From positions 5,823 to 69,822 of the forward strand of contig JAZRDC010000026.1 in the NCBI GenBank assembly GCA_045660065.1: a stretch of 64,000 bases of DNA, read 5' to 3'. This stretch comes from Clostridia bacterium. Lineage in GTDB: Bacteria; Bacillota; Clostridia; RGIG6154. The notes under the pieces were generated by a model. That model made no database searches, had not been told where the DNA came from, and saw nothing but the letters and a program-made list of their open reading frames with translations. Below are positions 3,307 to 30,716 of the stretch, in pieces (position 1 is the stretch's first letter; the number at the start of each line of letters is the position of its first letter). Both the position numbers and the translations under genes were made by a program.

Positions 3307-3775
3307 ATTGTTCGTTCATTTCTGAAATATATGCTTCAAATTCGATATTTTTTGCTTTAAGTCTGGTGTTACTTCCTGCGCCTAAATTTTTCTTGCCGTT
3401 TAAGAAATAGCCTTCTTTTTCAACCACTGCTTTAGCGTTTACTTCAAGATAAGCGTCAAACTTACCCGGATTTACTGCTTTAACATAGGTACCGTCTGCC
3501 ATAACTTCATTTGTTTCGGCATTTATAATGGTTTTTGAAACGATTTCACCAATCTCAATACCGTCTTCATCATATAACTTTCCTGATTCAGGTAAGGCAT
3601 CTGCAGTTGACTGAATTATCTCTCCTACCTTTACAACATAAACAATGTCTGTCATTTCTCCGTTTTCACTTTTCAGAGCAGTTGAATTTGTAAATTTAAA
3701 AGCCACAAAAACTACAACTGCACATATAAAAAGAATTACAATCAAATCTATTATATTAAATCTCTTTTTCATCAT
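3305..3775 (-). CDS. Small N-terminally membrane-anchored protein (DUF4330-like), paralog B
   Basis: The 156-aa ORF has a basic N-terminus followed by one TM helix (IIDLIVILFICAVVVFVAF) and a beta-rich soluble domain. It overlaps the upstream paralog by 1 nt (ATGA). Confidence 0.5.
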   Translation of the reverse strand: MMKKRFNIIDLIVILFICAVVVFVAFKFTNSTALKSENGEMTDIVYVVKVGEIIQSTADALPESGKLYDEDGIEIGEIVSKTIINAETNEVMADGTYVKAVNPGKFDAYLEVNAKAVVEKEGYFLNGKKNLGAGSNTRLKAKNIEFEAYISEMNEQ

Positions 3776-4242
3776 TATTCTCCTTCACTTACAGTTGTTA
3801 CATTTCCATGTCCAACAAATCCAATGCTTTTAACATCTACTCTTTTGCCTACATAAATTTCGTACTCATTAACAAAGCAGGATAATTCATTACAGTTACC
3901 CACTGCATCAACTTTAACTGTTAAATCATAGCGTTCAGGAATATTAACATTTACATATTCCCCTGTCAATGTATTAAGTTCGTACTTTGTTGCATCTGTA
4001 TAGGATACATCTGAAATTGTGCCGATATTTATGATTTTTACTCCGTCAAAAAGGTCAGCACCATTTTGTACTGATTCTGCAACCTCAAGAGGAACTTCTC
4101 TGAAAAGAATTTCGTAAGAAAACTCTTGACCTGCTCCCGAAGATGAATTGTTACCTAAAATCAACCATCCTGCAACCGCTACAAGGATAACGGCCATTAC
4201 TATAACAAAATCCACGAAATTAAATTTAAGTTTCTTTTTCAT
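3775..4242 (-). CDS. Small N-terminally membrane-anchored protein (DUF4330-like), paralog A
   Basis: The 155-aa ORF has the same architecture (MKKKLKFNFVDFVIVMAVILVAVAGWLIL then a beta-rich domain). It sits immediately downstream of the GT4 gene with a 1-nt gap. Confidence 0.5.
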   Translation of the reverse strand: MKKKLKFNFVDFVIVMAVILVAVAGWLILGNNSSSGAGQEFSYEILFREVPLEVAESVQNGADLFDGVKIINIGTISDVSYTDATKYELNTLTGEYVNVNIPERYDLTVKVDAVGNCNELSCFVNEYEIYVGKRVDVKSIGFVGHGNVTTVSEGE

Positions 4243-11106: not shown

Positions 11107-13311
11107 TTAAATTAAAGACAATTGTTCCCCATCTTTATCTTCTGCTATAAGTTTTGCACCTGCCGCAGGAAGATTGCGGGATTTATATGGTTTTGCCTCT
11201 GTAATTCCTGAATTTTCAAACAGTGTAAGATTTATCATTTTACCACGTTTTCCCGGATTAAATGTCTTAACACCCTGTGAACTTCTTGTTACTTTTTCAG
11301 GAATCATTGAAGTGTTAAACACAAGTGCCTTTTCGTTGCTACCGAATGCTACCAAATCTCTGTCTTCTTCAATATAAACAGATGAAACAAGCGGACTATG
11401 GTCTGAATATGCTTTTGTGAGCATCTTTCTGTTAGTTTTCGTAACATATGCGCTAAGCGGAACTTTACATGTTCTTCCGTCTTCAAAACCGAACACCATA
11501 TATCCCTTATATTCGCCCGCAACCACAGCATTTAAAATCATTTCACCTTCGCCAAGACCTAAAAGATTTGACATATATTCGCCTAAATCACTCGCCTTAA
11601 CGCTTGGGATTTCGTAAATTTTCATCTTGTATACATTACATTGATTTGAGAACAATAACAATTCTTCTTTATTGGAAGTATCAATTTCCAACATAATTTC
11701 ATCAGTCTCTTTAAGTTTCTGAACATTACTTGCTCTTAAAGATACAAGAGAAATCTTTTTGATATAACCCTGCTTGGTAACAAAGATTTTAAGTGAAAAA
11801 TCATCAATGAATTTTTCAGGCACAAAATCTATTTTGTTTTCTGCAGCAGAAATTATTTCTGTAACTCTGTCTTTACCATATTTTTTTGATATTTCCTGAA
11901 GTTGTTTTGAAATAAGATTTTTAATGCGTCTGTCGCTGTCAAGTGTTATTTTAATATCTTCAATTTCACGCTCTAAATCGGCAATATCTTTGATGTTTTT
12001 CAAAATGTATTCTTTGTTTAAATTTCTCAATTTAATTTCAGCAACAAAGTTTGCCTGAATTTCATCAATTCCAAAGCCTTGCATAAGAGTTGGAACAACA
12101 TCTGCATCTTTTTCAGTTTCTCTTATTATTTTAATTGCTTTATCAATATCAAGAAGGATTTTTTCCAAACCTTTAAGCAAATGAAGTCTTGCTTCTTTTT
12201 TTGACAAGTCAAATCGGAGTGTGCGTTTTACGCAATCCATTCTGAATCTGACCCATTCACAAAGAATTTGCTTAACACCCAAAACTCTCGGCATTCCGTC
12301 AATAAGCAAATTAAAGTTACAACTGAATGTATCCTGCAGAGTTGTTGTTTTAAAGAGCATTGTCATTAATTTATCAACATCTGTACTGCGTTTAACATCA
12401 ATGGCAATTTTAAGACCTGACAAGTCAGTTTCATCTCTTACATCTGTAACATCTTTAATTTTTCCCGCCTTAATCTGCTCAATAATTTTGTCGATAATTA
12501 CTTCAGCGGTAGTAGAGTATGGAATTTCTGTAATTTCGATAACATTGTTCTTTTTATCATAATTATATTTTGAACGGATTTTGAAACTGCCTCTGCCAGT
12601 TTCATAAATTTCACGCATTTCCTGCTCATCATATAAAATCTGACCGCCGCCTGGAAAATCAGGTGCTTTGATGATAGGAATCAAATCCACATTTTCATCA
12701 CGCATATAGGCAATGGTTGCTTCGCAGATTTCTCTTAAGTTAAAACTGCAGATTTTACTTGCCATACCTACTGCAATACCTTCATTTGGGTTAACCAAGA
12801 TATTCGGGAAAGTTACCGGAAGAAGTTTCGGCTCTTTCATTGTAGCATCGTAGTTATCCTGGAACTCAACGGAATCTTTATCGATTTCTGCAAAAAGTTC
12901 TTTACAGATTTCATCAAGTTTTACTTCTGTATATCTTGATGCGGCAAATGCCATATCTCTTGAAAACTGCTTACCAAAGTTACCCTTTGAGTCAACAAAC
13001 GGATGAAGCAGTGCTGCATTACCTTTTGTAAGACGGACCATTGTTTCATATATTGCCATATCGCCGTGAGGGTTGAGTCTCATTGTCTGTCCTACAACAT
13101 TTGCAGATTTAGTTTTATTTCCTGTTAAAAGCCCCATTTTATACATTGTATACAAAAGTTTTCTGTGAGAAGGCTTAAAACCATCAATTTCAGGGATTGC
13201 TCTCGAAACAATTACACTCATAGCATAGGGCATATAATTAGTTTCTAAAGTATCCGCTATTTTTTGTTCAGTAAAATTCATTTTATCCTCCAAATCACGA
13301 AATATCGGCAA
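11107..13311 (-). CDS. parC: Type IIA topoisomerase subunit A (ParC-like, topoisomerase IV; possibly a second GyrA)
   Basis: The N-terminus has the GyrA/ParC motifs AMSVIVSRAIPEIDGFKPSHRKLLYTMY… The 734-aa length is short for GyrA, so the C-terminal beta-pinwheel is reduced. The start is probably the internal ATG (MNFTEQ, ~13281), since the long ORF overlaps parE by 17 nt. Confidence 0.75.
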   Translation of the reverse strand: MPIFRDLEDKMNFTEQKIADTLETNYMPYAMSVIVSRAIPEIDGFKPSHRKLLYTMYKMGLLTGNKTKSANVVGQTMRLNPHGDMAIYETMVRLTKGNAALLHPFVDSKGNFGKQFSRDMAFAASRYTEVKLDEICKELFAEIDKDSVEFQDNYDATMKEPKLLPVTFPNILVNPNEGIAVGMASKICSFNLREICEATIAYMRDENVDLIPIIKAPDFPGGGQILYDEQEMREIYETGRGSFKIRSKYNYDKKNNVIEITEIPYSTTAEVIIDKIIEQIKAGKIKDVTDVRDETDLSGLKIAIDVKRSTDVDKLMTMLFKTTTLQDTFSCNFNLLIDGMPRVLGVKQILCEWVRFRMDCVKRTLRFDLSKKEARLHLLKGLEKILLDIDKAIKIIRETEKDADVVPTLMQGFGIDEIQANFVAEIKLRNLNKEYILKNIKDIADLEREIEDIKITLDSDRRIKNLISKQLQEISKKYGKDRVTEIISAAENKIDFVPEKFIDDFSLKIFVTKQGYIKKISLVSLRASNVQKLKETDEIMLEIDTSNKEELLLFSNQCNVYKMKIYEIPSVKASDLGEYMSNLLGLGEGEMILNAVVAGEYKGYMVFGFEDGRTCKVPLSAYVTKTNRKMLTKAYSDHSPLVSSVYIEEDRDLVAFGSNEKALVFNTSMIPEKVTRSSQGVKTFNPGKRGKMINLTLFENSGITEAKPYKSRNLPAAGAKLIAEDKDGEQLSLI

Positions 13312-15345: not shown

Positions 15346-15374
15346 ATTGTACTATAAATTTGAAATTATGTCAA
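15346..15374 (-). promoter_or_regulatory. sigma-A promoter for the parE-parC operon (TTGACA-N17-TACAAT) with a ~75-nt 5' UTR
   Basis: On the minus strand, TTGACA is the reverse complement of 15369-15374, the spacer is 17 nt, and TACAAT is the reverse complement of 15346-15351. It overlaps the divergent start region of the YihY-family gene. Confidence 0.45.
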
Positions 15375-15389
15375 GTAATGGGGAAAGTT

Positions 15390-16184
15390 ATGAAAAGCAT
15401 AAAACTGTTTATAAGGGAATTTATTAAAAATAATTTGTTATTTCACTCTGCACAAAATGCATTTTATTTTGTACTGTCTATTTTTCCTTTTTTGTATATA
15501 CTCACAAAAATATTTATTATTATCCCTTTGCCTTCAGAACAGGTTTTAAAAAGTTTAGAACTGCTTTTCCCCAAGGAAGCACTCAAAATTATATATTCAA
15601 ATTTAAATTCTATATCAAAAGTTGTCCCTTCTGTCAATTCAATTCCATATATTCTTGTTGCACTATGGTCATCATCTATGCTGATTTACTCGTTAAAATC
15701 AGTTTTTGCCATATTTTATAATAAAAAGCCAATAAAAAATAAACTGCATATCAGGGTTATATCAATTGCTATAACATCTATTGTTCTCATTGTAATATTT
15801 TTTACTTTTGTCGTTGTCTTTTTCATAAACCTTGGACTTAGTATTCTGGTAAAGCATCTGTCAATTGATTATTCACCATATGTTTTGTCCCTAATCAGTC
15901 TTGCTCTTATTATTTTCGATATTGTACTTTTATACATCATCCTGCCACCTGCCCGTATAAAAATTACACACGCAGTCCCGGGGGCGGTTTTTGCTATTTC
16001 CGGACTGACAGTATTTTCCTACGGGTTTTCATACTATATTAACTATATTGCTGATTATTCAAGAATATATGGTGCGTTAGGCAGTGTGATAACTTTGCTT
16101 TTATGGCTTTATTTCTGTTCGGTAATCATTCTGTCCGGTGGACTTATTAACGCAAAATTTTTCAAAGAAAAAGACACACCATAG
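15390..16184 (+). CDS. YihY/BrkB (virulence factor BrkB / ribonuclease BN-like) family membrane protein
   Basis: The N-terminus MKSIKLFIREFIKNNLLFHSAQNAFYFVLSIFPFLYIL fits YihY, and the ORF has 6 TM helices. I chose the start at 15390 after a GGGGAAAG RBS, because the ORF-track start at 15225 overlaps parE. Confidence 0.7.
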   Translation: MKSIKLFIREFIKNNLLFHSAQNAFYFVLSIFPFLYILTKIFIIIPLPSEQVLKSLELLFPKEALKIIYSNLNSISKVVPSVNSIPYILVALWSSSMLIYSLKSVFAIFYNKKPIKNKLHIRVISIAITSIVLIVIFFTFVVVFFINLGLSILVKHLSIDYSPYVLSLISLALIIFDIVLLYIILPPARIKITHAVPGAVFAISGLTVFSYGFSYYINYIADYSRIYGALGSVITLLLWLYFCSVIILSGGLINAKFFKEKDTP

Positions 16185-16191
16185 AGTGTGT

Positions 16192-16449
16192 CTAAAATAT
16201 GTATCCTGACAAAAGCAAAGCGGCTACACTGAATATTGCCGTCATATCTTTTTCTTCTTCCATCAAAAGCAAAACCAAAATAACAAGTAGTACTATATCA
16301 TCAGTTTTTAACCCTTGAGAAATTTCTGAAACCCTATTATCAGTACCGCAGTTACTTATTTCATTTTGTGCATTCAAAACAGGAAAATCCTCCGGTCTTG
16401 GAACAACAGTATCATAATTTTCAAATTTTCTATAATATCTTCTGTCCAT
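16192..16449 (-). CDS. Hypothetical small protein with a C-terminal double-TM hairpin
   Basis: The 85-aa ORF has a polar N-terminal half followed by two hydrophobic segments (IVLLVILVLLLM, AIFSVAALLLSGYIF). I recognise no family. Confidence 0.35.
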   Translation of the reverse strand: MDRRYYRKFENYDTVVPRPEDFPVLNAQNEISNCGTDNRVSEISQGLKTDDIVLLVILVLLLMEEEKDMTAIFSVAALLLSGYIF

Positions 16450-16463
16450 TTTTACCTCCGGTA

Positions 16464-16829
16464 TTATTTTTTAAATTCCGAAAACGCATTGGATATTTTA
16501 ATTGCCTTTCTGATTTTTTCGAGATTTCCTGTGCGCCTTTGACTCAGATATGGCTTTAACGCATCTAAAAGTTTAAGTCCCGGTGTCATATTATTTGAGT
16601 ATCCGCTATATGCATTATTAATCTTTTTAAGCATTTCGCTGTTTTGCTGATTATTTAAAAATTCATATATAAAGGGCAGCGAATTCAATGTTTCTCTTGA
16701 AGATGAATTTGTATTTTCATTTTCTGCCGACTCACCTGAAGACATATTTCCTACCATATCTTTGATGTTTTTAATTGCTTCAGGGTCTGCTATTAACTTA
16801 TTTAATAAATCCATAGGATTACTTTCCAA
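16464..16829 (-). CDS. Hypothetical small soluble protein; N-terminal motif shared with the 74-aa neighbour
   Basis: The 121-aa ORF starts DLLNKLIADPEAIKNIKDMVG, paralleling LKLLNHPDAIDLKNKIG in 16836..17060. It is Asn/Ser-rich and predicted helical. Confidence 0.35.
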   Translation of the reverse strand: MESNPMDLLNKLIADPEAIKNIKDMVGNMSSGESAENENTNSSSRETLNSLPFIYEFLNNQQNSEMLKKINNAYSGYSNNMTPGLKLLDALKPYLSQRRTGNLEKIRKAIKISNAFSEFKK

Positions 16830-16835
16830 TTAAAA

Positions 16836-17060
16836 TCATCCTTTCATTTTTTTCATTACTTCTCCGATAAGTTCTTCGCAGGTCTTTTCTTTGATTTTTT
16901 CTTCTGCCATTTTTAAATCTGCTCCTGTTGGATTTATTTGCTTAAATAATTCAAGAAGTTTATTCTGATCGATACTGCCAATCTTGTTTTTTAAATCAAT
17001 CGCATCAGGGTGGTTTAAAAGTTTTAATATTTTTTGTGAAGTTTCAGGTGATATATTCAT
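16836..17060 (-). CDS. Hypothetical small Lys-rich helical protein
   Basis: The 74-aa ORF is preceded by an AGGAAG RBS 6 nt upstream of the ATG at 17060. It shares the LLNxPDAI…KNKIG motif with the 121-aa neighbour. Confidence 0.35.
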   Translation of the reverse strand: MNISPETSQKILKLLNHPDAIDLKNKIGSIDQNKLLELFKQINPTGADLKMAEEKIKEKTCEELIGEVMKKMKG

Positions 17061-17075
17061 TAAATCTTCCTTTCA

Positions 17076-17108
17076 AAGAGTGCCATACTTTCATTGTATG
17101 GCACTCTT
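17076..17108. promoter_or_regulatory. Perfect 13-bp inverted repeat (AAGAGTGCCATAC-N7-GTATGGCACTCTT), operator or RNA hairpin, immediately upstream of the RBS of the 74-aa gene
   Basis: I read it directly from the sequence. On the minus strand it is followed by TGAAAGGAAG-ATTTA-ATG and has no U-tract, so it is not a canonical terminator. Confidence 0.35.
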
Positions 17109-17120
17109 ATTACAAATATG

Positions 17121-17207
17121 TTAGCAGGCAAAAAGAATCAAGAACACAAGAATGAAAAATAAAATGCTTGTGTCAATTCCTTTGTTTGAATTACAGTTGT
17201 TAAACAT
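17121..17207 (-). CDS. Candidate 28-aa micro-ORF encoding a small hydrophobic peptide (MFNNCNSNKGIDTSILFFILVFLILFAC)
   Basis: The minus-strand ATG (reverse complement of 17205-17207) is preceded by a strong SD GGAGGGAGG with a 7-nt spacer. The stop TAA is the reverse complement of 17121-17123. The C-terminal half is one TM-length hydrophobic stretch. It is below the ORF-track size cutoff. Confidence 0.25.
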   Translation of the reverse strand: MFNNCNSNKGIDTSILFFILVFLILFAC

Positions 17208-17231
17208 TTATGTTCCTCCCTCCAAAAATTA

Positions 17232-17261
17232 GAACTTTCGTTCTGATTACATATTATGTAA
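17232..17261. promoter_or_regulatory. Two adjacent palindromes (GAAC-N4-GTTC and TTACATA-T-TATGTAA) in the divergent control region
   Basis: GAACTTTCGTTC is at 17232-17243 and the perfect 15-bp palindrome TTACATATTATGTAA is at 17247-17261. Both lie between the micro-ORF RBS and the YfcE-gene promoter. Confidence 0.3.
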
Positions 17262-17283
17262 TATTCTTCCCAAGTGTTACATC

Positions 17284-17312
17284 TTGACAAATTCTATTTT
17301 CTATACTAAACT
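17284..17312 (+). promoter_or_regulatory. Putative sigma-A promoter for the phosphoesterase gene (TTGACA-N17-TAAACT)
   Basis: A perfect -35 TTGACA is at 17284-17289. The -10 TAAACT at 17307-17312 is weak. An alternative TATACT is spaced only 12 nt away. Confidence 0.3.
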
Positions 17313-17329
17313 AATTACGGTGATTTTTT

Positions 17330-17803
17330 TTGAAAAGAATTGTTGTTTTTTCAGACACACACAGAGATATAGATAATTGTATCCGTGTTCTTGACAATCT
17401 TATTGGCGTTGATATGGTTATACATTTGGGCGACCATACATTTGATGCAGAAAACATCAGTTATCTGTATCCTGACATTGAGTTTGTTAAAGTCCGCGGG
17501 AACAACGATTTTGATTTTTCTGTACCCTGTGAAACAGTTGTTGAATGCGAGGAAATCAAGATTTTTTGTTGCCACGGGCATATGTATAAACAAGATACTT
17601 TATTCAAATTGGCAGAAGATGAGGGTTGCTCTGTTGTATTGTGCGGTCATACTCACATCAGTAAAATTGTAAAAGAAAACAATATTACACTTATGAACCC
17701 GGGAAGTATTTCAAGGCCAAGAGATTCACATTGTTCCTATGGGATTATAGAGATAGAAAATAATAAATTCGGATTAGATGTTATAAAAGGAGTAAAGTTA
17801 TGA
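17330..17803 (+). CDS. YfcE/MJ0936-family metallophosphoesterase (phosphodiesterase)
   Basis: MKRIVVFSDTH…GDHTF…RGNND…GHTH are the canonical calcineurin-like metal-binding motifs. The start is TTG. Confidence 0.8.
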   Translation: MKRIVVFSDTHRDIDNCIRVLDNLIGVDMVIHLGDHTFDAENISYLYPDIEFVKVRGNNDFDFSVPCETVVECEEIKIFCCHGHMYKQDTLFKLAEDEGCSVVLCGHTHISKIVKENNITLMNPGSISRPRDSHCSYGIIEIENNKFGLDVIKGVKL

Positions 17804-18123
17804 ATTGTCCATTTTGCGGAAAAGAAATTAATGAAAATGAAACCTATTGCAAATCTTGCGGTAATCCGCTTACTGCAAAAGCGCGTGCGTTTTCAACATT
17901 GCCACAGACTAAAAAAACAAGAATGCTTAAAGTAAGCGACTATTTACTTATGTTTTTATTATCAATTATTTTACCTGTAAACTACATTATGTGGTTTATC
18001 TGGTTGTTTAACCCAAAAACAAATGTAAATAAAAAGAACTACGCAGCAGCAGCGTTAATTTTTAACACTTGCCTTGTAGTTCTTATAGCAGCAGGTTATG
18101 CAATAAACAAATTTTTAATTTAA
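17800..18123 (+). CDS. Zinc-ribbon domain membrane protein
   Basis: The N-terminal CPFCGKEINENETYCKSCGN is a CxxC…CxxC zinc ribbon, followed by two TM helices. It overlaps the phosphoesterase stop by 4 nt (ATGA), suggesting translational coupling. Confidence 0.5.
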   Translation: MNCPFCGKEINENETYCKSCGNPLTAKARAFSTLPQTKKTRMLKVSDYLLMFLLSIILPVNYIMWFIWLFNPKTNVNKKNYAAAALIFNTCLVVLIAAGYAINKFLI

Positions 18124-19538
18124 AATCTGAAATCTCTCATACCGCTTTCTATGTCAGAAATGTTGCTCTTTGCAATGTTTCTGACTTTTTCATTTGGTAC
18201 ATTTTCAAGTTCTTTTTCAATAAGTTTATTTCCGATTTCTTTAGTTTTTTCAGAAGCGTAATCTTCAACAAATTCTTTTAAAGTTATAAGTGCGTTCGGA
18301 TGACAGCAATTCTGGATTTGCCCTGTTTTGCAAAGTTGCATAAATCTATCTCCTGTTCTTCCTTCTCTGTAACAGGCTGTGCAAAAACTCGGAATGTATC
18401 CAAGTTCCATAAGCCATCTTACAACTTCATCCAATGTGCGTTTATCGCTTACATCAAACTGTTCTGAACCGTCTTCTTCAGGCTCGTCTTCTGAGTATCC
18501 GCCAACACTTGTTCTTGATGCTCCACTTATCTGCGATACCCCAAGTGGCAGAACCTTTTCTCTGCACTCTTTGCTTTCTCTTGTTGAAATAATCATACCT
18601 GTATATGGAACTGCAATTCTGATGCAGGCAACGATTTTTGCAAAAATCTCATCATCAATACCATTATCAAAAACACTTGGGTCAATATCACTTGCGCGTT
18701 TAATTCTTGGAACACTGATTGTATGTGGGCCAACACCGTGCACCGCTTCTAAGTGTTCTGCGTGCATCAAAAGTCCCGCAAATTCATACTTATACATTTC
18801 AAGACCAAACAAAACCCCAAGGCCTACATCATCAATTCCGCCTTTCATTGCTCTGTCCATCGCCTCTGTATGGTAAGCGTAGTTGTGTTTTGGACCTGTT
18901 GGATGTAATTTTTCATAACTTTCTTTATGATATGTTTCCTGGAACAAAATGTATGTTCCAATTTCTGCCTCTTTTAATTTTCTGTAATTTTCAACAGTAG
19001 TGGCCGCAATATTTACATTTACGCGTCTGATTGCACCATTTTTATGCTTAACGCTGTAAATTGTTTTAATGCAGTCTAAAATATACTCAATCGGGTTATT
19101 AACAGGATCTTCCCCTGCTTCAATAGCAAGGCGCTTATGTCCCATATCCTGAAGTGCAATAACTTCTTTTTCCACTTCTTCCTGTGTAAGTTTTTTTCTT
19201 GGAATTTCTTTATTTTTTGCGTGATATGGGCAATATACGCAACCGTTTACGCAGTAGTTTGAAAGATAAAGAGGTGCAAACATTACAATTCTGTTTCCAT
19301 ACAACTCTTTTTTAATTTTGTTTGCAAGAGCATACATTTCTTTAATTATTTCTTCATCTTCACAAGCAAGTAGAACAGATGCTTCTCTGTGAGAAAGGCC
19401 TTTGCAGTCTTCTGCTTTTTTTAAGATTTCTTTTACTAAACTAATATTATTTTTATTGGCCTCTGCATAGTTTAAGGTTTCGATAATTTCATCATGTGAA
19501 ATAAACTCTTCAGCCTTCATTGAATTTTTATTATACAT
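18120..19538 (-). CDS. hydG: [FeFe]-hydrogenase maturase HydG (radical SAM tyrosine lyase)
   Basis: The 472-aa ORF has the radical-SAM CX3CX2C motif (CVNGCVYC) and a C-terminal auxiliary-cluster CxxC…C motif (CTACYREG…NCC). Its length distinguishes HydG from ThiH. Confidence 0.7.
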   Translation of the reverse strand: MYNKNSMKAEEFISHDEIIETLNYAEANKNNISLVKEILKKAEDCKGLSHREASVLLACEDEEIIKEMYALANKIKKELYGNRIVMFAPLYLSNYCVNGCVYCPYHAKNKEIPRKKLTQEEVEKEVIALQDMGHKRLAIEAGEDPVNNPIEYILDCIKTIYSVKHKNGAIRRVNVNIAATTVENYRKLKEAEIGTYILFQETYHKESYEKLHPTGPKHNYAYHTEAMDRAMKGGIDDVGLGVLFGLEMYKYEFAGLLMHAEHLEAVHGVGPHTISVPRIKRASDIDPSVFDNGIDDEIFAKIVACIRIAVPYTGMIISTRESKECREKVLPLGVSQISGASRTSVGGYSEDEPEEDGSEQFDVSDKRTLDEVVRWLMELGYIPSFCTACYREGRTGDRFMQLCKTGQIQNCCHPNALITLKEFVEDYASEKTKEIGNKLIEKELENVPNEKVRNIAKSNISDIESGMRDFRF

Positions 19539-22656: not shown

Positions 22657-23166
22657 TCAATCACCCGATAAAATTTTTATTTTATCAACATCAATTCCTG
22701 TAACTGAGGAAACTGTTTCAGTTATCTGTGCAATTTCCGTGCTCATAATATTTTTAACATCAACACTTACCGACGCACTGTTATCAGTTATTGTAACAAC
22801 AGGGTTTTCAAATCCTTTTTCTTTTAACTGCACTTCGCAATCCGCCTCATTTTTTATTGCTTTTGCAATGTTAATCATTTCCTGCTCGGCATTTTTCCGT
22901 CCTTCTTCTGTTGTTGCAGGATTTTTGATGATATCTTCAAGCATTTCTTTTGCTTCATCTCTTGCCTTTTCTCTTTTTAGGATTTCACTTTCAAGGACTA
23001 TTTTATCTTCAACTTTAACATTATTATTTACATATGCCGCTTCACCAAGAATTTTGGCGGTCTGATCGCTTTGCTGTTGTTTGTAGTTACGGTTTACAAA
23101 TCCCGCTATAATTAAAACTGTCGCTAAAACCAAAGTTATGTACTTTCTGTTTAACACATATTTCAA
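22657..23166 (-). CDS. spoIIIAH: Stage III sporulation protein AH
   Basis: Last gene of the spoIIIA array: an N-terminal TM anchor, a charged linker and a C-terminal YscJ/FliF-like domain. Position and size (169 aa) fit. Confidence 0.7.
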   Translation of the reverse strand: MKYVLNRKYITLVLATVLIIAGFVNRNYKQQQSDQTAKILGEAAYVNNNVKVEDKIVLESEILKREKARDEAKEMLEDIIKNPATTEEGRKNAEQEMINIAKAIKNEADCEVQLKEKGFENPVVTITDNSASVSVDVKNIMSTEIAQITETVSSVTGIDVDKIKILSGD

Positions 23167-23168
23167 AA

Positions 23169-23627
23169 TTATTCCCCCTCGGATATTTTAACATAAATTC
23201 TGTGCATTGGTGCACCTGTTGCCGCTTTAATTATTTTTACAATTTCACTTTCATTTGCTCTACCTTCTACAGATACAAATATTCCGCGTATTTTCGGATT
23301 GCTTACGCTTTTAATCAACGGTTCGTCATCACTTAATTTAATTTCCAGTTGTCTGTTACTCCCTGAACTAATATCATATGCAAAGTTGCTTTCTCCCTGA
23401 TTGTCATAAGTAATAAACACTTCGCAGGATCTTACTCCTTGGATTTTCTTTAGAATTTTTTCCAGTTTTTCTGTTTCAATTCTATTCACACGCTCTTCAT
23501 ATATTCTGCTCTCCTTATTATTTTTCTCTGAATTACCGGGAATAAGCATAATTACTATACCAACAACCAACAAAATTAATAAAAATTTCTTTTCTTTTAC
23601 TCTGCTTACAATTTCATTAAAATTCAT
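23169..23627 (-). CDS. spoIIIAG: Stage III sporulation protein AG
   Basis: The 152-aa ORF has an N-terminal TM and the conserved C-terminal block RGIFVSVEGRANESEIVKIIKAATG. It sits between AF and AH. Confidence 0.8.
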   Translation of the reverse strand: MNFNEIVSRVKEKKFLLILLVVGIVIMLIPGNSEKNNKESRIYEERVNRIETEKLEKILKKIQGVRSCEVFITYDNQGESNFAYDISSGSNRQLEIKLSDDEPLIKSVSNPKIRGIFVSVEGRANESEIVKIIKAATGAPMHRIYVKISEGE

Positions 23628-23636
23628 TTGTTCACC

Positions 23637-24077
23637 TTATTCTAACACAACAGTTTCTTTATTTATGTCGCAATATGAAGAAATTAATGAAATAATTTCT
23701 TCTCTATTATCTTCGTTTGCAAGTTTTACTTTCACTTCTGTAACTTCGTTATTTTCCAAAGTAACTTCCACATTTTTTACAGATTTTCTGTTTGATTTTA
23801 ACATATTAATAATGTTTTGCCTTACAATTTCATTAGTTTGTTTTTGCACAGTTTCAGTTATTTTTGAATTTTCAAAAACAGGAACATTGTTATTAAAATC
23901 AAGCACACCGCTTGAAATATCAAACTCTCTCACCGAGCCTGCAAAAACAAGTACCAAAACAAGTCCGAATATATATTTACAATATTTTTCATACCCGCCG
24001 CCCGGTAACATTGTATATATAAGATTTACGGCTATCACTGTTGTTGCAATCAATATGATTATTTTGCTCATATTCAC
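23637..24077 (-). CDS. spoIIIAF: Stage III sporulation protein AF
   Basis: The 146-aa ORF has two N-terminal TM helices and a soluble C-terminal domain. Position in the operon fits. Confidence 0.7.
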   Translation of the reverse strand: MNMSKIIILIATTVIAVNLIYTMLPGGGYEKYCKYIFGLVLVLVFAGSVREFDISSGVLDFNNNVPVFENSKITETVQKQTNEIVRQNIINMLKSNRKSVKNVEVTLENNEVTEVKVKLANEDNREEIISLISSYCDINKETVVLE

Positions 24078-24078
24078 C

Positions 24079-25197
24079 TCACGAAATAAAATTACCGCTT
24101 ATCAGAATAATACCGATGCATCCTATAAACAACAAACTTACTGCTGTTAAAATCGCAAATATCATAGACACTGAGTCGGCAACATCTGTTGTAAGTTTCA
24201 CAATTTTTGTGTCTGAAACCGGTTCTAATATAACAGCGCTTAATTTAAACATCCACATAACCATTGCGATTTTTATAAGCGGCAATATTGCCACAGCACA
24301 TATTGCAATAATACCAACAACACCTGTAATGCTTCTTAGGGCTGCAATAGTGCCGATTATAGTTTCTATTGAATCAGACACAACTCCACCAACAACTGGT
24401 ACACTGCTGCCAACTGCAAATCTTGTTGCTTTGCCAAATCTACTGTCAAGTGCACTTCCCGCTAAGCCATACACCCCGTAAATACCGCTGTAAACTGCCA
24501 TACAGAACAACAATATCCATTTTACAAATTGTTTTAATGATTTAACTGCCGATGAAATGTTTATCCTGTCAGACATTCTGTCTGCTACCGACAACGAAAC
24601 TGTAGCAATTGATACCGATATCAAAAATTCTCCCAGAATTGAAGCAACAACATTTATCAATGAAACTAAAATCGGTGACATAAACCCTGATGTTGTAATC
24701 CCACCGCTTAAAGTGAGCAGAGTGAGCAATATCGGAATGGTTGATTTTATCATTGTTACAAGACTTTCTATTGTTTCCCTTGCCGGATTAATTAGTTCTG
24801 CAAAAACTGATATAATTATCCCGGCAAAAACACAATAACCAACTATAAACGCCGTCTTTGAAGCCCCGCCTCCAAGAGTAAGCCCCACGGTGTTTGTAAC
24901 ACTTATAATATATCCGGTTACAACAAGCATTGTAAATATTTTTATCAGATCATAAAAAGATTTAAAAATATATTCTTTGATTGCCTGAAATATACCTGTG
25001 CCATCAATGCCTTTGCCTTGTGCCAGATTATTTACAATGCTCTCCCCATCAAATTCAGGAAAGGTTTTTTCTGCAATTTCAAAGGCATTATTAATTTCCA
25101 TTTCGGTATAATTATCTGAAATTGTGTTTTCTTGTGCATTACAAACATACGGATTAAGTGCGCACATTAACATAATCATAAGTATAATTTTTTTCAT
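24079..25197 (-). CDS. spoIIIAE: Stage III sporulation protein AE
   Basis: The 372-aa ORF has a signal peptide and a polytopic membrane domain. Its size and position are diagnostic within the spoIIIA operon. Confidence 0.8.
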   Translation of the reverse strand: MKKIILMIMLMCALNPYVCNAQENTISDNYTEMEINNAFEIAEKTFPEFDGESIVNNLAQGKGIDGTGIFQAIKEYIFKSFYDLIKIFTMLVVTGYIISVTNTVGLTLGGGASKTAFIVGYCVFAGIIISVFAELINPARETIESLVTMIKSTIPILLTLLTLSGGITTSGFMSPILVSLINVVASILGEFLISVSIATVSLSVADRMSDRINISSAVKSLKQFVKWILLFCMAVYSGIYGVYGLAGSALDSRFGKATRFAVGSSVPVVGGVVSDSIETIIGTIAALRSITGVVGIIAICAVAILPLIKIAMVMWMFKLSAVILEPVSDTKIVKLTTDVADSVSMIFAILTAVSLLFIGCIGIILISGNFIS

Positions 25198-25580
25198 AGG
25201 GGTACCTTTGTAATCAGATTTATAAGTTCTTTAAAAATTGGTACTGAGGCTGAAAGTATTATGAGTTTACCTGCGATATCAATTTTTAGCGCAACAGAAC
25301 TTTCTCCTGCATCTTTGCACACCGACGAGATAAACTCACACATATAAGACACACCGATTACCTTGAACATAATTTCAAGATAGATTGTTTTAATACCTGC
25401 ATCATTGCATATCCTGCGTATACCCTCAAAGACAGTTTCAACATTTTTGCATATGTAAAGCATAAAAATTCCGCCAAAAATCACTGCTACGCACACTGAA
25501 AATTCAGGGCGGTAATTTTTAAGTATTACAGAAAGTAATGTTGCAACAAGTGCAATCCCAAGAATTTGTACTATATCCAT
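25194..25580 (-). CDS. spoIIIAD: Stage III sporulation protein AD
   Basis: The 128-aa ORF has four TM segments and overlaps spoIIIAE by 4 nt. Confidence 0.75.
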   Translation of the reverse strand: MDIVQILGIALVATLLSVILKNYRPEFSVCVAVIFGGIFMLYICKNVETVFEGIRRICNDAGIKTIYLEIMFKVIGVSYMCEFISSVCKDAGESSVALKIDIAGKLIILSASVPIFKELINLITKVPL

Positions 25581-25582
25581 AT

Positions 25583-25777
25583 TTAAAATCCAAAAGTATT
25601 TTTAACCACATCAAAAAGATTTTTTATTTCGCTGACCATTGTAAGCAATGCCACTATCAATCCTGCCAGAGTTACAAGCATCGCTTGTTCGTCTCTTCCT
25701 GATTTTGACAGCAGTTGATTGAGCACAGCAACCAATATCCCCACCGCCGCTATTTTAAATATCAAATCAACATCCAT
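25583..25777 (-). CDS. spoIIIAC: Stage III sporulation protein AC
   Basis: The 64-aa two-TM protein MDVDLIFKIAAVGILVAVLNQLL… is typical of SpoIIIAC. Confidence 0.75.
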   Translation of the reverse strand: MDVDLIFKIAAVGILVAVLNQLLSKSGRDEQAMLVTLAGLIVALLTMVSEIKNLFDVVKNTFGF

Positions 25778-25793
25778 AAATTTCTCCTTTAGT

Positions 25794-26299
25794 TTAAATA
25801 AGTAAAACTGCTATGCCAACTCCTGCTACAATTCCTGTTTTCTTCAACATTACGCATTCTTTATTACAAAAATCATTTTGTTTATTTATAATAGCCGAAA
25901 GTTTATCAAGATAACCATTTAACATTTTTTCCTGGTTTTCACAATCTTTTTCTCCAAGTTGCAAAAACAAATCTCTTGTTATGTAATATGTTTCGGTATT
26001 TGTGTTTTTTAAAAGCATTGGTGTAAGTTTTTCTATTGCGTTTTTGGCGCTTACACCCTTTTTAGCCAGTTCTTCCCCCACCGCTTTCATAAATTCAGAC
26101 GCAATGCCTGAAAATGAGGCTGATTTTAGAATACATTCATCTAAAAATCCACAGGAATATACAATTTCACTTTTAAGATATTCTATTCCATTTAAAAGAC
26201 CTTTTGCGAACTCAAGTTTTTTAATGTTGGATTTATAAAAATCAATTCCAAGTACCCAGCAAGTGAAGATAATTATAAGTGCTCCTAAAATTTTCATAT
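25794..26299 (-). CDS. spoIIIAB: Stage III sporulation protein AB
   Basis: I chose the internal start MKILGALIIIF (~26299). The longer ORF-track start at 26363 runs into spoIIIAA. About 168 aa. Confidence 0.7.
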
Positions 26300-27187
26300 T
26301 TCCTCCAGTAGCCGATAATTGATTGTGCGCCCTGAATGATTTTTTGATATTATCAGAAAACAATCAAAAGGAGTTTTTGTTATACCGAAAATTCTCGCTT
26401 TATCAAAATAATCTTTTTCGGTTATACCATGAAATGTTGCAAAAATCTTAACACCCGAAACTGAAATATTATTTATAATTTCAAAATCTTCTTTTGACAA
26501 TATTTCATCTGTTGCTATAATTTCGGGATTCATTGTCTTTAGCATAATATTTATTCCTTCTTTTTTGTAAATATCACTTAATACATCAGTATTTAAACCT
26601 AAATCATATATTCTTGCTCCTTCGGAAAACGGTGATATTTCACTTCTTTCATCAATAACAGACACATTTTTCCCCATATCTGACGCATATTTTATCATAT
26701 TTCTCAAAAGTGTGGTTTTGCCATAGCCGGGCGGTGCGATAATTAATACATTTCTTTCGGCCAAATCAAATTTATTGAAAATATTATTGCCCCAACCGTC
26801 TATTTGTCTTGACAATCTGATATTAAAACTTGAAATATCATTAATATTTTCAACAATTCCGCATTTGGTAATACATCTTCCGCAAATTCCTACTCTCGTG
26901 CCGTCCGGAAGGGTTATAAATCCACTTTTGATATCCTGCTGCATTGCATATACTGAATTTTGAGTAAAATATTTAAACATCTCTTTCAAATCCTCTTTGT
27001 GCAATCTTACGCCTTCATTTGTATTTTTAATTAAATTTCCATTTTTATCAAGAAAACATTTACTATTTAAACTGCAAAAAGTGATGTTTTGTCCGCACCT
27101 TACTCTTATTTCTTCGATATCTGTGTTATTTTTTAAACCTTGTTTTACAGCATCTCTCACCCTTAAGGGAAAATAATTGTAAAGCAT
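26294..27187 (-). CDS. spoIIIAA: Stage III sporulation protein AA (secretion-type ATPase)
   Basis: It has a Walker A motif (IIAPPGYGKTTLLRNMI). The start MLYNYFPLRV at 27187 is preceded by a GAGGAGG RBS, and the longer ORF-track start is unlikely. Confidence 0.85.
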   Translation of the reverse strand: MLYNYFPLRVRDAVKQGLKNNTDIEEIRVRCGQNITFCSLNSKCFLDKNGNLIKNTNEGVRLHKEDLKEMFKYFTQNSVYAMQQDIKSGFITLPDGTRVGICGRCITKCGIVENINDISSFNIRLSRQIDGWGNNIFNKFDLAERNVLIIAPPGYGKTTLLRNMIKYASDMGKNVSVIDERSEISPFSEGARIYDLGLNTDVLSDIYKKEGINIMLKTMNPEIIATDEILSKEDFEIINNISVSGVKIFATFHGITEKDYFDKARIFGITKTPFDCFLIISKNHSGRTINYRLLEEI

Positions 27188-27214
27188 TTCAAATTTCCTC
27201 CTCATGCACATTTA

Positions 27215-28362: not shown

Positions 28363-29058
28363 TTAATATTCCTTATTTTCAAACTCTTTGCGCATTTTGC
28401 CAAGGGCCTTTTTCTCAATCCTTGAAACATAAGACCTTGATATTCCCAGGAGTTTTGCTATTTCCCTTTGAGTTTTTTCCGCATATCCTTCAAGTCCGTA
28501 TCTGTACCTTATGACTGTTTTTTCTCTGTTTGTTAAAACATCCTCCAATATGCCATACATTTTTTTAATCTGCGCAGTAAGTTCCACCCGTTCGATAACA
28601 TCTTCATCTTCCTGAGATACTATATCTAAAAAACTGATTTCATTGCCTTCTTTATCAATACCAATGGGTTCTTCAAGTGAAACTTCATTGGCAAATTTTT
28701 TACCGCCTCGTATAATCATCAGTATTTCATTTTCGATACATCTGGAAGCGTATGTCGCAAGTCTGATACCTTTTTCTGCATCAAAAGTATTTATTGCTTT
28801 AATCAGTCCGATTGTGCCTATAGAAATTAAATCATCTGCTTCTACATTGGCAGAGTTATACTTTTTGGCAATGTATGCAACAAGACGCAGATTTTTTTCA
28901 ATCAAAGTATTTCTTGCAGACATATCGCCTGATTTCATTTTTTCAAGCTGTTCTTTTTCCTCCTTTGCGCTAAGTGGTTTCGGAAAAGAATTAGATGTGG
29001 AAACATACGACAGTAAAAAAAGCACCTGACTCATTACAGAGCCGAACAAAACAAACAT
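28363..29058 (-). CDS. sigK: RNA polymerase sporulation sigma factor sigma-K (pro-σK, uninterrupted)
   Basis: The hydrophobic pro-sequence ends …YVSTSNSFPKPLS, as B. subtilis pro-σK does with YVKNNAFPQPLS. The region-2 (DLISIGTIGLIKAI) and region-4 (REIAKLLGISRSYVSRIEKKAL) blocks match SigK, and no intervening element is present. Confidence 0.85.
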   Translation of the reverse strand: MFVLFGSVMSQVLFLLSYVSTSNSFPKPLSAKEEKEQLEKMKSGDMSARNTLIEKNLRLVAYIAKKYNSANVEADDLISIGTIGLIKAINTFDAEKGIRLATYASRCIENEILMIIRGGKKFANEVSLEEPIGIDKEGNEISFLDIVSQEDEDVIERVELTAQIKKMYGILEDVLTNREKTVIRYRYGLEGYAEKTQREIAKLLGISRSYVSRIEKKALGKMRKEFENKEY

Positions 29059-29614: not shown

Positions 29615-29905
29615 TTATCTTGATGAGTCAACAAATAAGCGTTCATTCTCTTTAAGGAAACCTAACTTCTCACGCGCAATTTTTTCTACGCGTTTGATTT
29701 CATTTTCTGTTTTCATTTCAGTTTCAATTTCCTTTTTAAGTTCATTCTGAACTTTGATTTCACTTCTTATTGTATCTGCTTTATCTGATAATTGACTAAT
29801 AGTAACCTGCTGTTGTATTAAAACAACACAAAAATAAACTGCCAAAACCATAGGAAGAACTAAAAACATTAAACTCTTTTTTCCGGTTTTCGTTTTCTTC
29901 GACAC
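29615..29905 (-). CDS. divIC: Septum formation initiator DivIC/FtsB family
   Basis: The 96-aa ORF has a basic N-terminus, one TM helix and a coiled coil (QLSDKADTIRSEIKVQNELKKEIE). It sits between yabQ and yabR and overlaps yabQ by 37 nt. Confidence 0.7.
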   Translation of the reverse strand: MSKKTKTGKKSLMFLVLPMVLAVYFCVVLIQQQVTISQLSDKADTIRSEIKVQNELKKEIETEMKTENEIKRVEKIAREKLGFLKENERLFVDSSR

Positions 29906-30414
29906 GGCTTACGCTCCTTGCAAAATTTATTGCCTAAATACAAAATCCCTACATTACACTTTATTTTAAAACAAAATTGCTTAAATGTCAATGCTATTTT
30001 CGCTTTTTTTGATAAAAGTTTTTGTTTTATTTTTAAAAATGGCAAAATTATAATTCTGCAAAGAGAAATTACAGGATACAACATTATTTTCAAAATATAT
30101 TTTATTAATTTGTTTGTCCATATAAAAATTCTTACAACATATGCACTTAACAACCATCTGTAAATTACAAATGCTACTATTGATGAAACCATCATATATC
30201 CTCTTATTTCCGCGCCGTTTAACTTTAAAATAAAACTAAATATAACAACTGATATTATTATATAATAAAAAATATCTTGCAAAACTAACTGCCTTGCTTT
30301 TACTATTTTCCCGAACCGTGCCGCCTTAAACAAATCAAAAATAATTCCGCAGATTATACCCAGCACAAAACAACTAACCACTACATTTATTTCCAGGGTA
30401 ACAGAATTGCTCAT
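29869..30414 (-). CDS. yabQ: Spore cortex biosynthesis membrane protein YabQ
   Basis: The 181-aa multi-TM protein lies immediately downstream of yabP, the conserved yabP-yabQ-divIC order. Confidence 0.6.
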   Translation of the reverse strand: MSNSVTLEINVVVSCFVLGIICGIIFDLFKAARFGKIVKARQLVLQDIFYYIIISVVIFSFILKLNGAEIRGYMMVSSIVAFVIYRWLLSAYVVRIFIWTNKLIKYILKIMLYPVISLCRIIILPFLKIKQKLLSKKAKIALTFKQFCFKIKCNVGILYLGNKFCKERKPCRRKRKPEKRV

Positions 30415-30428
30415 ATTTCATTTCCCCG

Positions 30429-30716
30429 CTACTTGAAAAGTTTTGCAAAAAAACCGCCCGAACTTTCCCCTTGTCCGTCATTATAAACAACAGAAAATAC
30501 ATAGCCTTCGATACTCATTTCGCCCTCATCCACGCTCAAAGTGTTAATATGCAGATTTTCGCCTTCCAATGTAATCATTCCATCCGTTGTTTCGGCTATG
30601 ATTTTTTCCTCGTCGAAAGATACAACATTTTCTACTCCTGAAATGCTGATTTTCTCTCTGTTTTCAATGATAATATTATGCAGCACACTATCCTTTAAAA
30701 ATTTCTTTTCTTCCAT
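30429..30716 (-). CDS. yabP: Sporulation protein YabP
   Basis: The 95-aa ORF has the YabP signature ISISGVENVVSFDEEKIIAETTDGMITLEGENLHI. Confidence 0.8.
   Translation of the reverse strand: MEEKKFLKDSVLHNIIIENREKISISGVENVVSFDEEKIIAETTDGMITLEGENLHINTLSVDEGEMSIEGYVFSVVYNDGQGESSGGFFAKLFK

Follow-up and report, generated by a model that had tools for sequence, protein, structure and literature searches.

What a cluster of four small genes without characterized relatives might do for its host is the question raised by the minus strand of a 64,000-nucleotide (nt) stretch of a Clostridia bacterium contig (JAZRDC010000026.1), referred to here in its whole length as the window. The four open reading frames (ORFs) listed there by an initial annotation are all present on this strand: a micro-ORF of 28 amino acids (aa) at 17121-17207, gene 2 (74 aa) at 16836-17060, gene 3 (121 aa, with a TTG start) at 16464-16829, and gene 4 (85 aa) at 16192-16449, representing the first to fourth cistrons. 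We propose, with moderate confidence, that they constitute a conserved four-cistron operon of endospore-forming Clostridia that would be under late mother-cell σK control and whose small products would act jointly at the membrane. The comparison behind this proposal used the DNA surrounding relatives of varying divergence, loci from species-representative genomes, and loci retrieved by scanning metagenomes with a degenerate peptide-core pattern; these loci carry L-numbers (L009, L012, etc.). The carriers are spore-forming gut and bioreactor Clostridia.

Judged by its substitution pattern, the micro-ORF, whose product in the window is MFNNCNSNKGIDTSILFFILVFLILFAC, is a genuine protein-coding gene under strong purifying selection. 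Among five close relatives, the variable columns are distributed over the codon positions as 4:3:22, with 22 of 29 being third positions, and pairwise nonsynonymous differences (pN) of 0.015-0.083 stand against synonymous ones (pS) of 0.45-1.0, a pN/pS of 0.03-0.1. The 12-residue core [IV]LFFI[LI]VFLILF is essentially invariant across lineages, although its codons differ. In deep lineages, identity to the window is 57-67% for the peptide, 29-58% for the 85-aa protein, 24-37% for the 121-aa protein, and 23-31% for the 74-aa protein. Every locus with the three partner genes, representing about eight lineages, also has the micro-ORF. The initial annotation had made its case depend on such conservation; the micro-ORF is present in all homologous loci with the synonymous substitution pattern, and the four ORFs and a palindrome behind the first of them are conserved jointly across related loci. 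We are highly confident that the micro-ORF encodes a functional peptide.

The translation signal of this gene is also preserved. Its Shine-Dalgarno (SD) sequence, GGAGGGAGG at 17215-17223 (minus strand), is separated from the ATG by a 7-nt spacer and forms the strongest anti-SD duplex (-12.0 kcal/mol) among 68 scored starts of the window, which bears out the strength previously ascribed to it. A GGAGG-type SD is kept in every lineage, and the SD of the window is unpaired in the centroid fold. The micro-ORF described as strongly SD-driven is a genuine, conserved gene that looks heavily translated. Nevertheless, its exact peptide sequence is absent from a 15-billion-protein collection and has no database annotation, because the ORF is too short and falls below the length limits of gene callers.

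In the micro-peptide, a short polar head that contains Cys precedes a hydrophobic helix at the C-terminus, which stops two residues before the stop codon. Orthologous peptides comprise 23-34 aa, such as MMKCRKGEIDTSILFFILVFLILFVWE in L009, MLRCGCEKSCDSNCGCSNTNILFFIIVFLILFVY in L012, MGCCNNERGFDTSVLFFILVFLILFYC in L013, MGCCGNEKGFDTSILFFILVFLILFYC in L094, MCNNGCDSSILFFIIVFLILFWS in L047, and MRRREGSSNILFFILVFLILFYE in L131. The last 14-17 residues are uniformly hydrophobic (ILFFILVFLILFAC), without a polar face, and the Kyte-Doolittle maximum of 3.75 is reached over residues 15-25. The product is predicted to be a single-pass membrane peptide of the tail-anchored type. A plain hydrophobic 12-mer that is nearly invariant is unusual and suggests a specific helix-helix interaction. 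Ten peptide variants searched against Pfam and NCBIfam at E ≤ 10 gave no relevant match, with HMMER filters being weak for queries of 23-34 aa, and the core motif string was found in no searchable paper. A ribosomally synthesized and post-translationally modified peptide precursor, considered in view of the Cys-rich head in L012, was set aside, as no modification enzyme is conserved beside the module. As a separate observation, the non-coding motif (A)CATA(T/A)TT immediately after the micro-ORF stop (17111-17120, minus strand, in the window) is kept in 5 of 7 lineages, including L009, L012, L013, and L094.

Promoter, peptide gene, an RNA hairpin, gene 2, gene 3, and gene 4 follow each other in constant order across lineages, while the outer flanks vary. 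In the window, the hairpin and the gene 2 ATG are only 15 nt apart, too close to accommodate a promoter for gene 2 alone, and genes 2-4 must therefore be transcribed through the hairpin. A canonical intrinsic terminator at 16162-16193 on the minus strand (also delimited as 16172-16193), AGACACAC-UCUA-UGGUGUGUCU followed by UUUUUCUUU, marks the end of the transcription unit after gene 4; it was the sole terminator-like site detected by a terminator scan of 15900-17700. It is very probable that the peptide gene and genes 2-4 form a four-gene operon. Its cistrons differ in their predicted translation signals, with anti-SD pairing ranks from the first to the fourth of 1, 39, 43, and 10 among the 68 window starts. 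The window contains one copy of the micro-gene.

Clustered at 90% identity, the three larger proteins are singletons; among 5.8 billion clusters they have only 6-15 close relatives, all unnamed. The initial annotation recognized no characterized family among these three, and our searches of all four products against Pfam and NCBIfam were without match. Including permissive scans, distant orthologs, and 40 members of the broader gene 3 family, nothing rose above noise in these databases, and for 20 family members the source name was in every case either empty or "hypothetical protein". Orthologs have sizes of about 80 aa for gene 2, about 120 aa for gene 3, and about 85-100 aa for gene 4.

Gene 2 has six close homologs, and its orthologs in distant lineages comprise 79-83 aa. 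An AlphaFold2 model with a pLDDT (predicted local distance difference test score) of 71 contains five helices, and a Foldseek comparison of this model with the PDB returned nothing below E = 6. As far as this model indicates, the gene 2 product is a soluble all-helical protein without known family. Gene 3 has 14 close homologs, and 73 cluster representatives emerged at E ≤ 1e-3 when its profile was searched exhaustively; by this sequence relationship its product belongs to a broader unnamed family. An 'LL..PEA..iK' helix at the N-terminus of the protein is joined by a disordered linker to a helical module at the C-terminus, 'PG..LLDALKPYLS..R...L..I.K'. In family members, the N-terminal helix reads 'LLsDPEa', the linker is of low complexity, and the C-terminal module reads 'DDPr.nLL.ALKPYLs.kR....D.AiK'; none of 40 members had a meaningful match in Pfam or NCBIfam, and "hypothetical protein" was the sole source name met with in the family. 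The database calls gene 3 from an internal ATG at 16814 (116 aa). We favor the TTG start at 16829 (121 aa) because of the family N-terminus M..NPM[DE]L and a better SD, AAAGGA, 8 nt upstream. The AlphaFold2 model of the 116-aa version reached a pLDDT of only 53 and was unusable.

The initial annotation had linked the 74-aa and 121-aa proteins as paralogs through a shared N-terminal motif. This motif exists, but paralogy is not supported by profile-profile comparison: hhalign returned a probability of 10% (E = 0.003) over 29 N-terminal columns only.

Gene 4 has 15 homologs, and its orthologs come after gene 3 in all lineages. A conserved N-terminus, RRYYR.(F/Y)EN.DTVVPR.EDFPVL, is combined with an invariant LLMEEEKD between two short hydrophobic helices. 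The C-terminal double transmembrane hairpin previously described for this protein is borne out in that two hydrophobic segments exist, at about residues 52-63 and 69-85 with peaks at residues 49-65 and 69-85, but these are short for full membrane spans; a membrane hairpin at the C-terminus is plausible from the hydrophobicity profile. The SD of gene 4 is strong (rank 10 of 68), whereas those of genes 2 and 3 are weak (ranks 39 and 43).

The link to sporulation comes from the operon promoter (17251-17277, minus strand), in which an 'AC' -35 element at 17276-17277 is separated by a 17-nt spacer from the -10 box CATAATAT at 17251-17258. The arrangement AC-N15-17-CATAnnnT was found in all 13 loci (about eight lineages), while the spacer and the 5' untranslated region diverge; -10 boxes of other lineages read CATATTATA, CATAATATA, CATATACT, or CATAGTAT. 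The first -10 position is C in every lineage, and σA prefers T at this position. In C. difficile, σE and σK share a -10 box, e.g., CATATTAT or CATATAAT, but are told apart by the -35 element, where σE has ATA and σK has AC (Saujet et al. 2013, PMC3789822). These promoter determinants were argued to be conserved among endospore formers (Eichenberger et al. 2004, PMC517825). With AC about 16-17 nt upstream of CATAnnnT(A), the operon promoter conforms to the σK pattern, and a σK (mother-cell) type is plausible from these sequence elements.

Sporulation genes of the host lie in the window: SigK is encoded there (28363-29058, minus strand, 231 aa) and scores 333 bits against a cut-off of 252. YabP, YabQ, and GPR also exceed curated cut-offs, and SpoIIIAA, SpoIIIAE, and SpoVB are strong matches. 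The sporulation or coat relation suggested by the initial annotation is in keeping with the conserved σK-type promoter and the sporulation genes of the host; none of the products matches a known sporulation family. We rate sporulation-specific control of the operon, as suggested by the promoter pattern, slightly better than even. Apart from this, sigK in the window looks uninterrupted, without a visible skin-like insertion, and adjoins the spoIIIA operon (22657-27211) and yabP-yabQ (29869-30716).

The main live alternative, which we consider rather improbable, is a vegetative operon for small membrane proteins. It would have the same anatomy, but a weak σA-type promoter would be active in growing cells, the products would form a membrane complex unrelated to sporulation, and the carriers would be spore formers only by taxon. 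A σ70-type scan reads the same promoter bases as GTAACA-N16-CATAAT with 9 of 12 matches, no module protein matches a sporulation family, and the flanks in L047 are the housekeeping genes coaX and alr and ribosomal protein genes. However, if CATA is taken as the start of the -10 element, the hexamers in other lineages are spaced by 14-16 nt, which is short for σA. Moreover, the C at the head of the -10 box in all lineages, along with a -35 element reduced to 'AC', is the σK signature (PMC3789822).

The perfect 13-bp inverted repeat noticed initially is present between the peptide gene and gene 2 at 17076-17108 (minus strand), with arms at 17096-17108 and 17076-17088, a 7-nt loop, and a folding free energy (ΔG) of about -21 kcal/mol. 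Its core pattern, which as a palindrome reads on both strands, matches one site in the window, where chance would yield 0.00; it was found at this position only. All of the 12 loci have the hairpin, and its ΔG ranges from -15 to -29 kcal/mol and its z score from -5.7 to -7.8. In an alignment of 11 sequences, 92% of the cells pair and both sides have changed in 8 of 13 pairs; none of 500 shuffles matched the observed score, and slid registers dropped to 22-52% pairing. Where Watson-Crick pairing is absent, a U·G or G·U wobble takes its place, and it does so on the sense strand only, so that the hairpin works as RNA. The apical CCAUAC/GU(A/G)UGG is kept in sequence as well as in pairing, suggesting a specific reader.

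A U-tract downstream of the hairpin is missing from every lineage; the window continues with UGAAAGG, and the tails of L009, L012, L013, L094, and L131 are U-poor as well. The stem itself would suffice for a terminator, but without a U-tract the hairpin is not a canonical one, and the terminator scan of 15900-17700 did not report it. Rfam has no matching family for it, and a search over 15900-17600 yielded no Rfam family. By analogy with known intercistronic structures, a stability or processing element is a possible role, which we put forward tentatively.

A leader peptide or upstream ORF, for which the act of translation alone would matter and would control read-through of the hairpin or expression of gene 2 by attenuation or coupling, had been suggested for this layout. 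The ORF indeed lies in the 5' leader directly ahead of a strong hairpin, and one fold of the window pairs its 3' end with the SD of gene 2. Yet selection acts on the amino acid sequence over the whole hydrophobic core (pN/pS 0.03-0.1), no lineage offers the U-tract that would follow an attenuator hairpin, and no alternative pairing is conserved. For 9 of 10 lineages, the probability of SD-masking pairing is 0.00-0.22, and folding a slightly different fragment of the window gives 0.06; translational coupling by masking of the gene 2 SD was dismissed as neither reproducible nor conserved. Furthermore, gene 2 begins anywhere from 15 to about 230 nt beyond the hairpin, and the same peptide tail occurs on other proteins without the downstream trio (L027 and L100). 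We regard control by a leader peptide as very unlikely, and this part of the initial annotation is not upheld.

Just as little weight attaches to the possibility that a dimeric transcription factor binds the inverted repeat as a DNA operator, with no RNA structure involved. Such a site would account for the perfect palindrome and for the sequence conservation of the inner half-sites CCATAC/GTATGG. However, every non-Watson-Crick position (in L001, L009, L047, and L094) is a U·G or G·U wobble when the sense strand is read, whereas the opposite strand would have A·C. Compensatory changes occur in the outer stem, and the stem length ranges from 9 to 16 bp, both of which fit pairing rather than a fixed half-site, and the repeat lies within the transcription unit.

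Fst- or TxpA-type toxins typically have a charged tail, whereas the hydrophobic helix of the micro-peptide reaches the C-terminus without one. A type I toxin-antitoxin-like module, in which a membrane toxin would be checked by an antisense RNA or by mRNA structure, had been proposed for a small hydrophobic peptide (28 aa, under about 60 aa) beside a stable hairpin, but we consider it the least probable reading and not supported, given that the plus strand of 16200-17283 has no promoter- or terminator-like site such as a canonical antisense RNA would need, that minus-strand coding fully explains the conservation pattern, that the top-ranked SD of the window is left unpaired by the centroid fold, that the single-copy gene holds a syntenic chromosomal position with the same three co-oriented genes always downstream, and that type I modules of B. 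subtilis are σA driven (PMC10730256).

Returning to the proposed σK-controlled membrane operon, we envisage the following course of events. σK RNA polymerase would transcribe the operon late in the mother cell. In the resulting sense RNA, the hairpin might act as a 3'-end protector, a processing site, or a partial pause site; the mRNA segment for the peptide would then accumulate to a level other than that of the distal genes, raising the dose of the peptide. Together with the hairpin, the SD pattern of strong, weak, weak, and strong would set the stoichiometry and favor the two membrane products. The invariant peptide helix might finally dock on the gene 4 hairpin or on a sporulation membrane machine through a specific helix-helix contact.

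Several points weigh against this proposal. The promoter assignment is a matter of sequence pattern, and the same bases can be read as the weak σA promoter mentioned above. No module protein belongs to a known sporulation family; one gene 2 ortholog gave a sub-threshold SpoVIF match (E = 0.04). Structure prediction was uninformative for genes 2 and 3, and the role ascribed to the hairpin is an analogy. All carriers are uncultured metagenome-assembled genomes (MAGs) or metagenome contigs; those with organism names are MAGs of uncultured Clostridia. In L047, the peptide gene and its hairpin are set apart from gene 2 by a 278-nt structured spacer (reverse-complement 3735-4012), in which several extra strong hairpins and another CATAATAC box are found, and there the peptide gene may be a separate transcription unit.

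It is tempting to speculate further that the operon represents an unrecognized sporulation membrane module, although we think this improbable in its full form. The peptide helix would dock to or regulate a conserved late-sporulation membrane machine (for instance a transporter, protease, or enzyme related to cortex or coat), comparable to the small transmembrane regulators AcrZ, MgtR, and phospholamban-like peptides. A dedicated RNA-binding protein or RNase would recognize the hairpin apex and set the peptide dose, and the hydrophobic tail on the proteins of L027, L100, and L058 would be a portable targeting module.

Among known systems, SpoVM and CmpA provide a close precedent for such neglected genes, being mother-cell sporulation proteins of 26 and 37 aa that were long overlooked by annotation (PMC10730256). 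These Bacillus subtilis proteins share with the micro-peptide the very small size, and they are produced in the mother cell from sporulation sigma factor promoters and act at or near the forespore membrane, a setting that for the micro-peptide is suggested by the promoter pattern. However, SpoVM is an amphipathic surface helix encoded by a σE-dependent monocistronic gene, whereas here a uniformly hydrophobic helix heads a four-gene operon with a σK-type promoter pattern. Neither sequence similarity nor a hidden Markov model match was found between SpoVM or CmpA and the micro-peptide. A SpoVM-like coat-anchoring peptide was also rejected, as ILFFILVFLILFAC lacks the polar face of an amphipathic helix.

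A second likeness is to YjcZ, whose gene is listed in the σK regulon of B. subtilis (PMC517825). The YjcZ or 'tiny transmembrane' family combines a Gly/Cys/polar head with an L/I/V/F hydrophobic helix in spore-forming Firmicutes under σK-type control, which here is indicated by the promoter pattern. The variant in L123 (…CGFFGGNSEILFFILVFLILFGGFFD) is presumably the most YjcZ-like, going by the family motif. On the other hand, there was no match to the model at E ≤ 10, in a search of low sensitivity to distant kinship for queries this short, the core motif is distinct, and the micro-peptide is tied to a downstream trio and an RNA hairpin.

Like the type I toxins Fst, TxpA, and BsrG, the micro-peptide is a small hydrophobic membrane peptide encoded near structured RNA. 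It differs from them in that no antisense gene was found, in its exposed strong SD, its operon partners, its single-copy syntenic position, and its sporulation-type promoter pattern.

Intercistronic stabilizer hairpins are known from the puf operon and from the repetitive extragenic palindromic elements of malEFG, where mRNA segments differ in abundance. The hairpin described here would resemble them as a stable structure without a U-tract between a highly expressed proximal cistron and weaker distal ones, its function being suggested by this analogy; it differs in the sequence conservation of its apical stem, and Rfam holds no family for it. Finally, yabP-yabQ, cotJA-JB-JC, and gerPA-PF are likewise clusters of genes for small proteins (below about 130 aa) of the mother cell, some of them membrane-embedded. 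No homology to these clusters was found, and they differ from the operon described here in that the latter contains a micro-ORF below gene-caller limits and a conserved RNA element.

Small sporulation-associated or membrane micro-proteins and small-protein operons are thus of a kind already known; it is the families that are uncurated, the micro-ORF that is unannotated, and the hairpin that is not in Rfam. The micro-gene is the best-conserved coding element of its operon, yet it is missing from the 15-billion-protein collection, and it is a well-supported addition to the short list of bacterial micro-proteins with comparative evidence. Four unnamed protein families, one of them widespread with its 73 cluster representatives, and a covarying RNA element become available for curation. 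In gut Clostridia, the coat and the late-stage machinery are known to differ greatly from those of Bacillus. If σK-type control holds, the operon would point to a component of their late sporulation that is made of small proteins and is so far unstudied.

The module is flanked in the window by a YihY/BrkB-family membrane gene (15354-16184, plus strand) and by a divergent phosphoesterase gene of the YfcE type with a Metallophos_2 domain (17330-17803, plus strand). The divergent YfcE-like phosphoesterase gene adjoins the module in the window, L009, L012, L013, and L131; in L047, coaX takes its place. Its recurrence could reflect a functional link or mere retained synteny. In the window, it forms a divergent pair (17330-18123, plus strand) with the gene of a zinc-ribbon membrane protein. 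A radical-SAM enzyme with precomputed Pfam matches to Radical_SAM and BATS, which we take to be HydG-like, is encoded two genes upstream of the module (18120-19538, minus strand), a neighborhood confined to close relatives. At the outer flanks, the window group has ParE/ParC and the HydG-like gene, L009 has an AraC-family gene and cobW, L013 and L094 have HrcA-GrpE, L011 has NusB-XseA, and L058 has a SleB-like protein.

In L058 (9823-10307), two tandem genes encoding proteins of 61/70 aa and 67 aa, each with two copies of ..ILFFI[IL][IV]FL[IL]LF.., lie upstream of homologs of the trio; the micro-gene is thus duplicated and internally repeated in this locus. The module is followed there by the gene of the SleB-like peptidoglycan-binding protein (11881-12576). 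An otherwise unrelated 58-aa protein, MAEENILK...NKEVILFFILVFLILF[CY]D, ends in the same hydrophobic tail and has no trio downstream. Its gene in L027 (reverse-complement 1072-1293) and L100 (reverse-complement 1353-1529) is followed by a terminator and the gene of a secreted LysM/SCP-like protein; it is found on more than 25 contigs, in MAGs that bear the names Acetivibrio sp. and Clostridium sp., with no annotation other than hypothetical. The scans also returned spurious hits. About 110 of the at least 120 loci listed by the metagenome scan for the peptide core were chance hydrophobic matches, and the 'hairpin' in L065 was coincidental. A genome scan with a pattern of the 85-aa family yielded two true genomes and one false positive, L014, in which the 33% match (4001-4201) lies inside an ORF of 888 aa for a helicase-like protein.

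The 5' leader holds two further elements. Near the predicted 5' end of the transcript, a small stem-loop at 17232-17243 (minus strand), GAAC-GAAA-GUUC, has a 4-bp stem and a GNRA-type tetraloop; it is predicted in both the minimum free energy and the centroid folds of the window and is probably an mRNA 5' stabilizer. Close relatives have GAAA, GCAA, GAGA, or GAUA loops, with a G·U pair in the stem of L001. Hairpins of other sequence occupy the same position in L009 (GAAGC-GGU-GCUUC) and L012 (GAACCGA-AU-CGGUUC), while none is present in L013, L047, or L131. Outside the operon, a divergent σA-type promoter on the plus strand (17284-17312), TTGACA-N17-TAAACT with 10 of 12 matches, is assigned to the phosphoesterase gene. 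The leader alignment contains an invariant TTTGTCAAG box, which is conserved in the shared intergenic region because it is the TTGACA -35 element of this divergent promoter.

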